A stretch of DNA of 58,196 nucleotides from Bryobacteraceae bacterium (lineage in GTDB: Bacteria; Acidobacteriota; Terriglobia; Bryobacterales; Bryobacteraceae). The notes beneath the pieces were generated by a model that saw only the letters and a program-made list of their open reading frames with translations, was not told the origin of the DNA and searched no databases. Below, piece after piece: positions 45,734-58,196 of the stretch. The stretch is from the NCBI GenBank assembly GCA_030038565.1, contig JASHSS010000159.1, positions 1 through 58,196 of the forward strand, given 5' to 3'. The translations under genes were made by a program, and so were the position numbers. Every line of letters begins with the position of its first letter. The first letter of the stretch is position 1.

Positions 45734-45873
45734 GCCGCTCTCGGAGGCAGTTTCGAGGCCATCCGGAAGCGACTCAAAACAAAGGAAGAGCAGCCGAATC
45801 GTGCGACAGTTTTCTGCCGCTGCGACAGAATCCTGGCGCGCGCGTGTTACGCTGTATTTCAGCCCTGAATCAG

Positions 45874-46797
45874 ATGCGAAACGTCATCATTATAGGATCC
45901 GGTTGCGCCGGCAATACCGCCGCGATTTATACCGCGCGCGCCAATCTCAAGCCGTTGGTGATTGGTGGTCACGAAGCCGGCGGCCAGCTTTCCCTTACCA
46001 CCCTGGTGGAGAACTTCCCAGGTTTCCCCGAGGGCATCAACGGACCCGACCTGGTCGAAAACATGAAGAAGCAGGCCGAGTATTTCGGCGCCGAGTACCT
46101 GCACGGCTCGGTCACCGATACCGACTTTTCGGCCCGTCCGTTCCGCCTGAACGTGGAAGGCGAGTGGATGGAAACCCGCACCGTGATCATTGCCTCGGGC
46201 GCTTCGGCGCGGTGGTTGGGGCTCGAATCCGAGCAGCGCCTGATCGGCCACGGGGTAAGCTCCTGCGCCACGTGCGACGGGTTTTTCTATCGTGGAAAAA
46301 AGATCATGGTGGTGGGCGGCGGCGATTCGGCCATGGAAGAGGCCAATTTCCTCACCCGCTTCGGCAGTGAAGTGACCCTGGTGCACCGCCGCGATGAGTT
46401 TCGCGCCTCCAAAATCATGCTCGACCGCGCACGCCGCAATCCCAAGATCCAATTCGTCACCAACGCCGCCGTCGAACACATCTTCGATGTCTCCCAGAAC
46501 GTGGTCACCGGCGTGCGCCTGCGCAACCTGAAAACCGGCGAGGTCTGGGAGCGCGACGTGGACGGGTTCTTCGTGGCCATCGGCCACATCCCTAACACCA
46601 AGATCTTCAAAGGCCAGATCGAAACCGACCCGGACGGCTACATCCTCTCCAAAGGCGGCGCGCGCACCAACATCCCCGGCGTTTTTTACGCCGGCGATGT
46701 GCAGGACCGCGTTTACAAGCAGGCCATCACCGCCTCCGGCGCCGGTTGCATGGCGGCCATCGAAGCCGAACGTTACCTGGAAGCGGAAGGACACTGA
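45874..46797 (+). CDS. trxB: thioredoxin-disulfide reductase
   Basis: MRNVIIIGSGCAGNTAAIY, redox-active CATCDG and GGGDSAMEEA. Confidence 0.9.
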   Translation: MRNVIIIGSGCAGNTAAIYTARANLKPLVIGGHEAGGQLSLTTLVENFPGFPEGINGPDLVENMKKQAEYFGAEYLHGSVTDTDFSARPFRLNVEGEWMETRTVIIASGASARWLGLESEQRLIGHGVSSCATCDGFFYRGKKIMVVGGGDSAMEEANFLTRFGSEVTLVHRRDEFRASKIMLDRARRNPKIQFVTNAAVEHIFDVSQNVVTGVRLRNLKTGEVWERDVDGFFVAIGHIPNTKIFKGQIETDPDGYILSKGGARTNIPGVFYAGDVQDRVYKQAITASGAGCMAAIEAERYLEAEGH

Positions 46798-54048: not shown

Positions 54049-56172
54049 ATGGCACATTTTCTCGCCAATTTGTTCTCGAGCGATTTCATCGCCCATCGGA
54101 TGTGCTACCGGAACGATGCCGGAGTTCTCTGGCTGAACGTTATTTCGGATTCGCTCACCGCTCTGGCCTATTACCTCATTCCGCTGCTGCTCTTTTACTT
54201 CATACGGCGGCGCAGGGATGTCGGGTTCCGGTGGATTTTCGCGGCCTTCGCTATTTTCATCCTGGCCTGCGGCACCACCCATGCGTTGGGCGCCCTCACC
54301 GTGTGGGTTCCGGTCTACCGGCTGGAAGGCGGGGTGAAAGCGATTACCGCGCTCGCCTCGCTGACCACATTTTTCCTGTTGGTCCGAATGATGCCGGAGA
54401 TCCTGGCTTTGCCCAGTCCCGCGCGGCTCGCGGCAGTGAACCGGCAACTCGCGGACGAGATTGAGGAGCGCCGCGCCGCCGAGACCGAAGTCCGCCGGAT
54501 GAACGAGGAACTCGAAGAGCGGGTCTTGCGGCGCACGGCGCAACTGACGGAAAGCGAAGGATCCTTCCGCCAACTCGCCGACGCTCTGCCCCAGATGGTA
54601 TGGATGGCCGGTTCGGACGGCCGAATAGAATACCTGAACCGCCAGTGGAGCGAGTACGCAGGAATCCTGCCCGGCGAAGCGGGTAGCCCCTCGTCGTGGA
54701 CCTCCATCGTACACACCGCGGACGCGCCCATGGCCGCGGAGCGCTGGCAGGCTTCGGTTGAAACGGGCGATCCCTTCGACGGCGAGTACCGGCTGCTGGG
54801 CAAAGACGGCGGCTACCGCTGGTTTCTGGGCCGCAGCCGGCCGGTGCTGGGCGAACACGGCAAGATTCTCCGCTGGTTCGGCACCTTCACGGATATCGAT
54901 GGCCAGAAGCGGGCGGCGGAAGAACTGAGCCATGCTCTGGAGGAATTGCGCATTGAAATGCGCCGCCGGCGTGACGTCGAGGATCAGTTGCTCCAGGCCC
55001 AGAAGATGGAAGCGATAGGCCGGCTGGCGGGCGGGGTGGCCCACGATTTCAATAACCTGCTGACGGTAATCCTGGGGTATAGCGAACTGCTGCGCGAGGA
55101 GAGCGCCGGGAACCCCACGGCGCTGGAGTTCGTCTCGGAGATCCGCAAATCCGCCGATCGCGCGTCATCCCTCACCAACCAGTTGCTGGCCTTCAGCCGC
55201 CGCCAGGTCTCCGTGCCCCGGGTGCTCGATCTGAACGAAGTGGTGTTGCAAATCGAGAAGATGCTCCACCGCATCATCGGCGAGGACGTCCAGCTAAACC
55301 TGCGGCTGGCCGATGGCTTGCCGTTCGTCAAGGTGGACCCCAGCCACATTGACCAGGTGATTATGAACCTGGCGGTGAATTCACGCGACGCCATGCCTCA
55401 GGGAGGCCGATTGACTCTGGAAACCGCGGCTGTGCGCTGGTCCAGCGAGTATGGGGATGGGCATCCCAACCTGCCGGCCGGCGATTACGTCATGCTGGCG
55501 GTGAGCGACAACGGCTGCGGCATGGATGCGGTGACGCGCGGGCGGCTGTTCGAGCCGTTTTTCACCACCAAGGAGAAAGGCAAGGGCACCGGCCTGGGCC
55601 TGTCGATCGTCTATGGCATAGTGAGGCAATCGGGCGGCGACATTCTGGTGTATAGCGAACCCGGCCAGGGCACGGTGTTCAAGATCTACCTGCCGGCCGC
55701 CGCCGGAGGGCCGGAGGGCGCCCCGGCCCCAACCGAGCCAGCCCGCCCCGAGACTGCGGGCGCGAACACCGCGGAAGGCCCAGCCGGCCCGCCACAGGCT
55801 GCCAAAACCATCCTGCTGGTGGAGGACGAAGTCCAGGTGCGCAGCCTGACCCGGACCATGCTGTCCAAGCTCGGCTACCAGGTGATCGACGCCGGTTCGG
55901 CGGCCGAGGCGCTGGAATTGCTCGACCGCACCAGCGAGCCGATCTCGCTGCTGCTGGTCGATATTGTGATGCCGGAGATGAGCGGCCCGCAACTGGCTCA
56001 GCGGGTGCTGGCCTTGCGCCCGGCAATTCCTGTGCTGTTCATGTCCGGCTACACCGACGGCATGGTGGAGCAGGGCCTGCTCGACTCCGGCACGCCGTTC
56101 ATCCAGAAGCCGTTTACGGCCGAAGGTTTGGCGCAGCGGGTGCGCGAGGCGCTGGCCGGCAGCGAGGGATAG
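54049..56172 (+). CDS. hybrid sensor histidine kinase/response regulator with ETR1-like (ethylene-binding-domain-like) membrane N-terminus, PAS, HisKA, HATPase_c and REC
   Basis: 3-TM N-terminus [50 protein letters not shown] ([27 protein letters not shown]). H-box [18 protein letters not shown] and [12 protein letters not shown] (ILLVEDE...[13 protein letters not shown]). Confidence 0.9.
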
Positions 56173-56278
56173 CCGGCAGGAAGCGCGGAACCCACGGCAG
56201 TCCAGCCCCCGCCGCGTCGCCCGCGTTCCCGCGGTACCGGTGGCCGCGTCTCAAAACATCGGCTGGTATGATAGAAAA

Positions 56279-57292
56279 ATGACGTTTCGCAACAGCTTTT
56301 TGTGCCTCTGTCCACTGGTTTGCCTGATGGCACAGACCCCGCCGTCCCAGTCGGCTCCCCCAGCGCCTCCCACCACCGGTTCGGCCCCGGCTTCGGTGCA
56401 GCCCGCGCCGGCTACCGTGCGGCCGCCCGGAATGCAGAATCTGCCCTTTGGACATCCCACGGCGACGCCCCCTCCCCCGCCTCCCACGGTTCCCCCCGAT
56501 CGCGTCGTGATTACGGTGGGAGATGTGAAGATCACGGCCGCCCAGTTCGATCAAATCCTGGGCCTCTTGCCTCCCCAGTCTCAAGTGCAAGCTCGCACCG
56601 CCACCGGCCGCAAACAGTTTGGCGATGCCGTGGTTAGGATTCTGGCGCTATCCGACGAGGGCCGGCGGCGCAAGCTCGATCAAACGGACGCTTTCCAGAT
56701 GCAGCTCAAATTTGCGCAGGACAACCTGCTGGCCGGGATGACGTCGATCGAGGTGGGCAAGGAAATCAAGCTGGACGATGACGAGTTGCACAAGTATTAC
56801 GACGCGCACCTGACCGAATACGAGCAGGCGCATGCCCAGCACATTCTCATTCGGGTGAAGGGTTCGCCCTCTCCGCTGCCTCCCGGGCGCGCCGACTTGA
56901 GCGACGCCGAGGCGCTCGCCAAGGCGCAGGAGATCCGCCAGAAGCTCGAAGGGGGCGCGGATTTTGCCGCCCTGGCCAAAGACGAATCCTACGATACCTC
57001 GAACGCCTCCAAAGGCGGCGACCTGGGAGAGATGCGCCACGGACAGATGGTCGGACCCTTCGATCAGGCCGTGTTTGCCATGAAACCGGGCGAGATCAGC
57101 CAGCCGGTGAAAACCCAGTTCGGCTATCACATCATCAAGCTGGAATCCAGGGAGACCAAGACCTTCCTCGAAGTGAAGCCCGAACTGGAGCGCCGCCTGA
57201 AACCGGAAATGACCCAAAAGGCCATCGAAGATATTGTGAAGAAGGATAACCCGGTGATGGATCCCGAGTTCTTCATGACGGCCAGCAAGTAA
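56279..57292 (+). CDS. secreted parvulin-type peptidyl-prolyl isomerase (SurA/PrsA-like)
   Basis: Signal peptide MTFRNSFLCLCPLVCLMAQ, a Pro-rich linker and the PPIC domain HAQHILIRV...GGDLGEMRHGQMVGPFDQAVF...GYHIIKLE. Confidence 0.85.
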   Translation: MTFRNSFLCLCPLVCLMAQTPPSQSAPPAPPTTGSAPASVQPAPATVRPPGMQNLPFGHPTATPPPPPPTVPPDRVVITVGDVKITAAQFDQILGLLPPQSQVQARTATGRKQFGDAVVRILALSDEGRRRKLDQTDAFQMQLKFAQDNLLAGMTSIEVGKEIKLDDDELHKYYDAHLTEYEQAHAQHILIRVKGSPSPLPPGRADLSDAEALAKAQEIRQKLEGGADFAALAKDESYDTSNASKGGDLGEMRHGQMVGPFDQAVFAMKPGEISQPVKTQFGYHIIKLESRETKTFLEVKPELERRLKPEMTQKAIEDIVKKDNPVMDPEFFMTASK

Positions 57293-57295
57293 GCC

Positions 57296-57610
57296 GTGCG
57301 CACCCGCAAGCTGACTATCGCGTGCCCTACCTGCGGGTCGGGCGAAGTGTTTTACAGTTGCACACCCGGCTGTTGCTTCAACCACGTCTGCGCGGAATGC
57401 GGCACCACCTTTGAACCGGTTACCCAAGCGGCCGGCGGCACGCTCGCGGGAGTTGTGCCGCCCGACCCCCTGCCGGAGGCCGCCGACCCCACCGTGGCCT
57501 GCGCGCGGTGCGATTCGACCGCCGTCTACATGACCGGCGAGGGCGCCCTGGTGTGCGCCAAATGCGGCGCCCTCCTACGCCTGGAGCTGACCGAAATCGC
57601 TCCCGGCTAA
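57296..57610 (+). CDS. double zinc-ribbon-like Cys-rich protein
   Basis: CPTCGS...CAECG and CARCDS...CAKCG pairs. The GTG start is 4 nt after the PPIase stop. Confidence 0.5.
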   Translation: MRTRKLTIACPTCGSGEVFYSCTPGCCFNHVCAECGTTFEPVTQAAGGTLAGVVPPDPLPEAADPTVACARCDSTAVYMTGEGALVCAKCGALLRLELTEIAPG

Positions 57611-57615
57611 CCAGC

Positions 57616-58164
57616 CTACTGGTTCTTGTGGGCCAGCCGGCTGCAGGCAGTTTCGGCGCCGCTGGGGTCGATGGCTACGCTGCCTTCCTCGATATGGATG
57701 ATCTTGCCTTCTTTGTCGATCACGAATGTAGCCCGGTTGGCCACTCCCGCCTGGGGGATCAGCACGCCGTAAGACTTGGACACCTCCCGGTTCGCGAAAT
57801 CGCTCAATAGCGGGAAGGAAGCATTCACCTTGGCGGCGAACTCTTTCAACGAGAAGGTGTTGTCCGTGCTGATTCCGAAGATCCTGGTTTCCGCGGTGTC
57901 AAACTTCGAATTCGCAATACCAGCCTGGTATGCCAATAGTTCCTTCGTTCAACCACCGCTGAAAGCCGCCGGGAAGAACGCCAGGACGACGTTGTCCTTC
58001 CCCCGGAACTCGGAAAGCGTGACCTTCCCGCCCGCGGTGGACGGCAAGGTGAAATCCGGCGCCATATCGCCCTCTTTGAGCTGGGTGTGCGGCGGCTGGA
58101 TATTTTGAGCCAGAAGGTTGACGGACAGGATTGCCCCGGCAACCGCGAATTGTAGGAATCGCAT
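57616..58164 (-). CDS. secreted AhpE/PrxQ-like peroxiredoxin with in-frame TGA (candidate selenocysteine) at the peroxidatic position
   Basis: Track ORFs 57949..58164 and 57616..57936 are in the same frame and are separated only by TGA at 57949-57951. The joined protein reads ...[44 protein letters not shown]...IFGISTDN...FPLLSDF...GVANRATFVIDKEG. Signal peptide MRFLQFAVAGAILSVNLLAQ. RBS GGGAGGG. Confidence 0.65.
57914..57933 (-). promoter_or_regulatory. candidate bacterial SECIS hairpin
   Basis: The minus-strand RNA GCAUACCA-GGC-UGGUA(U)UGC begins 15 nt after the UGA. The apical loop has GG, and an outer CGAA/UUCG pairing can extend the stem. Confidence 0.4.
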
Positions 58165-58196
58165 ATTCCCTCCCGTGACGTTAGCTTACCATTCCC

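Follow-up and report, generated by a model that had tools for sequence, protein, structure and literature searches.

A probable selenocysteine codon in place of the peroxidatic cysteine in an AhpE/PrxQ-like peroxiredoxin of Bryobacterales (Acidobacteriota)

The peroxiredoxin locus and its protein

The window, the whole stretch of DNA analysed here, comprises 58,196 nucleotides of a Bryobacteraceae genome (the entire contig JASHSS010000159.1, assembly GCA_030038565.1). Near its end, the minus strand contains an open reading frame running from 58164 to 57616, in which the sequence and its translation reveal a single in-frame TGA at 57951-57949. The features of the locus are as follows.

58169..58173, minus strand: GGAGG, a putative Shine-Dalgarno-like sequence 4 nt 5′ of the ATG (direct reading of the sequence)
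57616..58164, minus strand: probable selenoprotein CDS, complete, AhpE/PrxQ-like peroxiredoxin, 182 codons with Sec as codon 72, plus TAG (sequence, Pfam, PDB homologues, orthologues)
58164-58162, minus strand: ATG start (sequence)
58105..58164, minus strand: putative signal peptide of the Sec type, MRFLQFAVAGAILSVNLLAQ, with Ala19 or Gln20 as the probable last residue before cleavage (reading of the sequence)
57949..57972, minus strand: active-site motif P65-A-A-F-S69-G-G-U72, of the form PxxxT/SxxU (translation, structure alignments, orthologues)
57949..57951, minus strand: UGA, probable selenocysteine codon at the peroxidatic position, codon 72 (alignment with AhpE Cys45, orthologue codons)
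57914..57933, minus strand: putative bacterial SECIS-type hairpin GCAUACCA-GGC-UGGUA(U)UGC, with an 8-bp stem, one bulged U on the 3′ side and an invariant G in its small apical loop
57733..57735, minus strand: codon of Arg144, the conserved catalytic Arg of the peroxiredoxin active site (ANRATFV)
57643..57645, minus strand: codon of Cys174 (A-C-S-R), a candidate resolving cysteine (invariant in Sec and Cys orthologues)
57618-57616, minus strand: TAG stop (sequence)
57296..57610, plus strand: Cys-rich zinc-ribbon protein of 104 aa with several Cys pairs, convergent neighbour (weak Pfam zinc-ribbon matches; synteny in at least 17 genomes)
56240..57292, plus strand: PpiC-type peptidyl-prolyl isomerase of 350 aa, convergent with the peroxiredoxin gene (Pfam Rotamase_3, 2e-29; synteny in at least 17 Bryobacterales genomes)

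The promoter lies outside the window, as the contig ends only 32 nt upstream of the ATG. Beyond the PpiC gene, a hybrid histidine kinase is encoded at 54049-56172 on the plus strand, with PAS, HisKA, HATPase and receiver domains and an N-terminal ETR1_N domain (ethylene-receptor-like, E=9e-36). At one orthologous locus (L006), a divergent valyl-tRNA synthetase gene is located upstream of the peroxiredoxin gene.

The read-through product is a protein of 182 aa. It matches the Pfam family AhpC-TSA (PF00578) at residues 32-157 with E=9e-34 and 116.5 bits against a cutoff of 26, and this match spans the UGA, as does that to Redoxin (E=5e-25). The GC content of third codon positions is approximately 0.76 on both sides of the TGA. 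A phmmer search against PDB chains places the TGA column at the peroxidatic Cys of both Mycobacterium tuberculosis AhpE (Rv2238c) and the S. tokodaii peroxiredoxin 2ywn, with residue 72 of the query opposite Cys45 of AhpE. A sequence-only reading of this DNA had described two same-frame ORFs divided only by the TGA, with the stop falling exactly at the catalytic Cys of a peroxiredoxin and with neither half showing decay, both having GC-rich third positions. The coordinates and layout are as it gave them, and the alignments, the third-position composition and the Pfam match across the join agree with the remainder.

AhpE (PDB 1xxu, 1xvw, 4x0x) and the S. tokodaii Prx/PrxQ (2ywn, 4g2e) are the closest solved structures by sequence, with E-values from 4e-24 to 7e-21. 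AhpE is among the best matches (E about 1e-21), and the S. tokodaii PrxQ scores above it. These proteins share with the window protein the FP.AFT..C(T/Q).E motif and the same catalytic Arg, but they are Cys-based and cytoplasmic and lack both the N-terminal extension and the Cys174 segment; AhpE is a 1-Cys peroxiredoxin. The peroxiredoxin active-site motif PxxxT/SxxC(U) and the conserved catalytic Arg are both present in the window protein, which has Ser69 at the motif position where most orthologues have Thr. Arg144 is invariant in the orthologue alignment (A1) and is aligned with the Arg of GIANRGTFV in AhpE; the catalytic role of this residue is established for peroxiredoxins in general. 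The codon of Cys174 is TGC or TGT in 81 of 82 Sec forms and in all 23 Cys forms.

The window protein scores 57.5 bits against the PrxU equivalog (NCBIfam NF040737, cutoff 270) and 45.9 bits against Prx-SUH (NF045827, cutoff 298). Its motif is SxxU with no Cys at -3, and thus the CxxU of Prx-SUH is absent. As all NCBIfam matches are far under their cutoffs, the protein is outside every curated NCBIfam equivalog.

The solved cytoplasmic homologues lack an equivalent of the N-terminal ~27 residues, and their alignments begin only at residue 25-30. In this N-terminal segment, a single Arg at position 2 precedes a hydrophobic core of residues 3-19 (Kyte-Doolittle 1.8-2.1). The A-Q at 19-20 is conserved, and L17 and Q20 are near-invariant in both Sec and Cys orthologues. 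As the N-terminus resembles a signal peptide of the Sec pathway, the enzyme is likely to be periplasmic, and the export put forward in the sequence-only reading is plausible.

Conservation of the UGA codon and the reading frame

With each GTDB species represented by one genome, a scan located approximately 30 Bryobacterales loci with about 51-84% amino acid identity, including that of the isolate KBS 96. A further 80 loci came from metagenomes, searched with a Cys form (P0012) as the seed. The orthologue DNAs from these Bryobacterales genomes and metagenomes number 110, and their peroxidatic (Cp) codon is TGA in 87 and TGC or TGT in 23. The TGA is kept in 31 of 32 Bryobacterales orthologue DNAs, consisting of 29 genome loci and three JGI contigs (L001-L003), and only one of the ~30 genome loci (L029) has another codon, TGC. 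The peroxiredoxin gene is syntenic with the zinc-ribbon and PpiC PPIase genes in at least 17 genomes; the compared loci are therefore true orthologues.

The reading frame is intact throughout. All 105 complete orthologue CDSs have a length of 173-199 codons, with no additional stop. Pairwise Nei-Gojobori comparison of the window with Sec orthologues gives a dN/dS of 0.04-0.33 for the codons 3′ of the TGA other than those of the hairpin, and a similar 0.04-0.48 on the 5′ side. These ratios indicate purifying selection on both halves of the gene.

The nucleotides around the codon are also biased. Directly before the UGA (window 57952-57957), two Gly codons are GGU in 62 of 79 and 55 of 82 Sec forms, where the Cys forms have GGC (Fisher p=1e-6 and 2e-4). 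The Sec forms further favour ACC at -3, ACG or ACC at +1 and GAA at +3. This points to a constraint on the sequence context of the UGA that may act in addition to the hairpin. At L007 (7525-7530), UGA-AAU (Asn) replaces the UGA-ACN (Thr) that otherwise follows the Sec codon, giving the motif GGU-N-R-E.

The nearest database proteins are Bryobacteraceae/Solibacter peroxiredoxins of 60-78% identity. Of the top 120 protein matches, 15 have Trp at the Cp column (P0001-P0007, P0011, P0017, P0020, P0025, P0055, P0079, P0106 and P0107). In the first alignment, the five closest JGI entries have Trp at this column and the remaining aligned entries have Cys. The ‘Trp’ codon is TGA in all three entries for which the DNA was checked, and those contigs contain no other stop. 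The metagenome gene caller apparently used a code in which UGA is read as Trp (code 4).

The hairpin downstream of the UGA

The hairpin begins exactly 15 nt 3′ of the UGA and lies in sequence coding for A-Y-Q-A-G-I-A. Its segment GC(A/G)UACCAG-(G/U)(C/U)(U/G)-... is near-invariant in the 87 Sec forms, despite being coding (A-Y-Q-A/S-G-I/M-A). A covariation model of these 87 sequences, with alignment columns 28-35 paired to 39-47 and one bulged U, finds the stem paired in 92% of cells, with changes on both sides in six of the eight stem pairs. The paired fraction, the number of covarying pairs and the covariation score were reached by none of 500 shuffles, a statistic which ignores phylogeny, such that the main covarying pairs may stem from few events. 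When the 3′ arm was slid along the alignment as a control, the pairing fell to 21-58%. An alignment of 32 sequences gave no significant covariation, with one covarying pair and 49-57 of 500 shuffles scoring as high.

Several compensatory changes were recorded. A C-G pair becomes U-A through a synonymous TAC to TAT together with a non-synonymous GGT to GAT in six sequences, and an A-U pair becomes U-A through TAC to TTC with GGT to GGA. The last bases of the Ala and Ile codons likewise alternate between A-U and G-C (GCA..AUU and GCG..AUC).

Within the hairpin, synonymous sites are frozen: GGU encodes Gly+10 in 74 of 75 sequences, where 11 other conserved Gly codons are dominated by GGC with a normalised entropy of 0.6-0.9; the two GGU-biased Gly codons just 5′ of the UGA have entropies of 0.41 and 0.49. 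Gln+8 is CAG in 81 of 81, and the third base of this codon is the loop nucleotide G36, which is invariant in the 87 sequences.

The Cys forms mostly have neither the YQ[AS]G[IM] constraint nor the hairpin. The median folding energy of the 26-nt segment is -10.0 kcal/mol in Sec forms versus -6.0 kcal/mol in Cys forms (Mann-Whitney p=6e-10, uncorrected for phylogeny). The hairpin can still be folded at the equivalent place in divergent orthologues such as L150, L152 and L157. The window sequence by itself folds no better than chance (z = -0.76, equalled by 41 of 200 shuffles), and as this single-sequence fold is not significant, the support for the hairpin comes from comparative data and not from energy. 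A search of Rfam returned nothing relevant over the whole contig at the gathering threshold or over 57800-58050 at E<=10, and no match of bacterial SECIS type.

The spacing of the hairpin fits the UGA-to-loop range of 16-37 nt that is reportedly used by bSECISearch. The window hairpin differs from the E. coli fdhF-type SECIS in its unrelated sequence, in a spacer of 15 nt as opposed to 11 nt, and in having the bulged U on the 3′ arm. As hallmarks of bacterial SECIS elements, a position inside the reading frame and a small apical loop in which a G is conserved have been published (PMC1088965). The stem-loop, the apical G and the covariation all agree with a bacterial SECIS, and the hairpin is a putative binding site for SelB.

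The earlier reading had placed a SECIS-compatible hairpin 15 nt after the UGA. It is found at 57933-57914, is conserved with compensatory changes and is lost in most Cys forms, and its invariant loop G and position inside the ORF fit the published hallmarks (PMC1088965). That reading had also named beforehand an alignment with Cys orthologues as a check, and further disruptions in orthologues as a sign of a pseudogene. The alignment places 87 TGA and 23 TGC/TGT codons in one column, and the 105 complete CDSs contain no disruption. Its proposal of a candidate selenoprotein is thereby strengthened by the conservation of the UGA, by selection and by the hairpin comparison.

Two other observations concern the same region. 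A candidate lower stem could form between UGA-A and a downstream UUYGA (K-F-D/E codons), that is, window 57947-57953 with 57898-57904 or A3 columns 9-13 with 52-56. Its pairing is compatible in ~90% of cells; the 5′ arm is the invariant UGA, so covariation is uninformative. A 6-nt (Asn-Ser) insertion at 57905-57910, directly behind the hairpin, occurs in the window copy only and is absent from all other orthologues compared.

Selenocysteine decoding and Sec/Cys interchange

In bacterial selenocysteine decoding, an mRNA hairpin binds the SelB-GTP-Sec-tRNA(Sec) complex and directs the insertion of Sec at a UGA. The genes for this machinery are not on the contig. ARAGORN detected no tRNA gene in its 58,196 bp and no tRNA-Sec in it or in the 29 orthologue loci, and tblastn with E. 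coli SelA, SelB and SelD queries found no homologue in the 58-kb window or the Bryobacterales flanks. With the SelB of S. usitatus as query, more than 120 clusters of full-length SelB were retrieved from Solibacter, Bryobacteraceae and Sulfopaludibacter, with 75-100% identity and every SelB-specific domain present. The metagenome-assembled genome (MAG) GCA_039934035.1 (WGS JBDTMZ01) contains both a TGA orthologue (L018, JBDTMZ010000116.1) and a full-length SelB (P0244, locus L168 on JBDTMZ010000125.1), a link which depends on binning. The earlier reading had given a genome without selABCD or tRNA-Sec as grounds for rejection, and in this sister genome, subject to the binning, that check speaks for Sec decoding. 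Of the SelB entries traced to a MAG, only P0244 was joined to the genome of a TGA orthologue; P0258 belongs to an unrelated MAG. The supplements of PMC1794560 record SelA, SelB and a Sec-FdhA for S. usitatus, a member of the same order. In a Solibacter-like MAG, a 172-aa AhpC-TSA/Redoxin gene (L084, 9393-9911, minus strand) is located ~1.5 kb from selB.

The absence of Sec machinery from the 58-kb contig, together with the sequence-based nature of the evidence for Sec, leaves some room for the UGA being recoded as another amino acid. This could occur through near-cognate insertion of Trp, Cys or Arg stimulated by the hairpin, or through a lineage-wide reassignment of UGA. This is improbable. 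TGA is an ordinary stop in the contig, where it ends many long ORFs, including the Pfam-complete Pyr_redox_2 gene at 45844-46797. No other in-frame TGA in the contig made a convincing selenoprotein candidate when they were scanned, and the peroxiredoxin TGA alone convincingly has coding sequence on both sides. A UGA that falls exactly on the redox Cys and is replaced by Cys codons in some orthologues is characteristic of Sec, and the position and loop G of the hairpin are typical of a bacterial SECIS (PMC1088965). SelB is also common in the order and co-occurs with the TGA orthologue in JBDTMZ01. The Pyr_redox_2 gene (plus strand, ~11 kb from the peroxiredoxin gene) encodes a protein of 317 aa, the size of a thioredoxin reductase, and no functional link is evident.

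Termination at the UGA would produce an exported peptide of 71 aa and a separate product of 106 aa from an internal TTG at 57936. A TTG-start ORF does directly follow the UGA, and gene callers give exactly these two products. However, neither half would hold a peroxiredoxin active site, since the Cp residue is missing from both, and the reading frame continues through this codon in every orthologue, with the Cys forms being single polypeptides. The internal TTG (Leu77, UUG) lies in the 15-nt spacer and is not conserved as a start, its column (25-27) varying between CTG, ACC, CTC and others. Two separate products are thus very improbable. A nonsense-mutated pseudogene or sequencing error, in which a Cys codon TGC/TGT became TGA and the gene is dead, could draw on the Cys found in 105 of the top 120 database proteins and on the storage of the gene as two fragments (71 and 106 aa), but is scarcely credible given the TGA at the same codon in 87 independent orthologues with identity down to ~51% among genome loci and no further disruptions, a dN/dS of 0.04-0.3 on the 3′ side, and an excess of Cys in protein sets that is a gene-calling artefact, the Sec forms being truncated or mistranslated with Trp. 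For practical purposes, the conserved TGA, the lack of extra stops, the low dN/dS and the synteny therefore exclude that the gene is a decaying pseudogene, that the TGA is a sequencing error or that translation ends there.

The reading preferred here, with a probability of about 0.9, is that the UGA is a genuine selenocysteine codon in one intact AhpE/PrxQ-like peroxiredoxin gene of Bryobacterales (Acidobacteriota). The integrity of the gene, the conservation of its UGA, the purifying selection and the conserved, covarying hairpin are direct observations, and from them we infer selenium incorporation and SelB binding. Codon 72 would be decoded as Sec during translation, with the mRNA hairpin 15 nt downstream serving as a bacterial SECIS. 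Through it, SelB-GTP-Sec-tRNA(Sec) would be recruited to the ribosome and compete there with RF2. The N-terminal ~20 residues would act as a Sec-pathway signal peptide, and the enzyme would probably act in the periplasm. According to general peroxiredoxin chemistry, Sec72, activated by Ser/Thr69 and Arg144, would attack H2O2 or an organic hydroperoxide and be converted into a selenenic acid. The C-terminal Cys174 probably resolves this as a selenenylsulfide, which may then be reduced by a thioredoxin-like partner.

Neither the decoding mechanism nor the type of enzyme is new, as UGA/SECIS/SelB decoding and Sec-peroxiredoxins are already well established. Sec-peroxiredoxins with a TxxU motif form an established family (PMC1794560, PMC1088965, PMC13188914), for which the PxxxTxxU motif has been described (PMC13188914, PMC1088965). 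The Sargasso Sea sequences contain 43 genes of this family (PMC1088965), and complete genomes contain 12 (PMC1794560). For PrxU of Eubacterium acidaminophilum, Sec was verified experimentally by Sohling et al. in 2001, as cited in PMC13188914. PrxU (NF040737) also has Sec at the peroxidatic position and the same general chemistry, but it is an AhpC/Prx1-like protein of ~233 aa in another peroxiredoxin subfamily, and the window protein is not its orthologue.

Among the known Sec forms, Prx_2 of Anaeromyxobacter dehalogenans belongs to the ‘Prx (TxxU)’ family in the 2006 catalogue of Zhang, Gladyshev and co-workers (PMC1794560, supplementary file 4). Over 143 aa, its identity with the window protein is 45% (E=1e-38). 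The two share the Pfam family, the position of U in ...AFTxGUT(K/R)EL.AY..., the Arg motif ANRAT(F/Y)V and the C-terminal Cys in ...AIDP.GA.T.C. Anaeromyxobacter belongs to another phylum, whereas the window is from the order Bryobacterales of the Acidobacteriota. The published Prx_2 fragment begins at the mature domain, and thus the signal peptides cannot be compared. The available part of the PMC1794560 supplement contains no sequence with the FPAAF motif and no member of the Bryobacterales clade; for S. usitatus it includes two Sec-FdhA and two further selenoprotein entries. The Bryobacterales Sec-peroxiredoxin is therefore a member of an already established family, from a clade that is missing from the 2006 catalogue and from the NCBIfam models.

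Sec and Cys versions interchange often at this one orthologous, syntenic locus. The Cys (TGC) orthologue L142 (Ga0134099_1000034) has a perfect SECIS-like hairpin, AUACCAGGCUGGUAU, and the Cys forms L093-L104 have a half-decayed one, UACCAGGCUAGU. These hairpins look like fossil SECIS elements remaining after the replacement of Sec by Cys. By Fitch parsimony on a neighbour-joining tree, the sampled clade has a Sec root and no fewer than eight changes from Sec to Cys, a result that is suggestive only, given the biased sampling and the simple tree. It may tentatively be proposed, at slightly less than even odds, that the exported peroxiredoxin was ancestrally Sec-containing in Bryobacterales and changed to Cys on at least about eight separate occasions, leaving fossil hairpins. 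This would be the opposite of the published trend for peroxiredoxins, which runs from Cys to Sec only.

The gene and dozens of its orthologues are wrongly stored in databases, either as fragments of 71 and 106 aa or as full-length proteins with a false catalytic Trp. Annotation as one selenoprotein is warranted for the window gene and its TGA orthologues. A common soil order of Acidobacteriota would accordingly use selenium in a probably periplasmic enzyme of peroxide defence. If the ancestral Sec state is true, abundant aerobic soil acidobacteria would depend on a periplasmic selenoenzyme for defence against peroxide, and the clade would be a natural series in which to ask when Sec pays over Cys.
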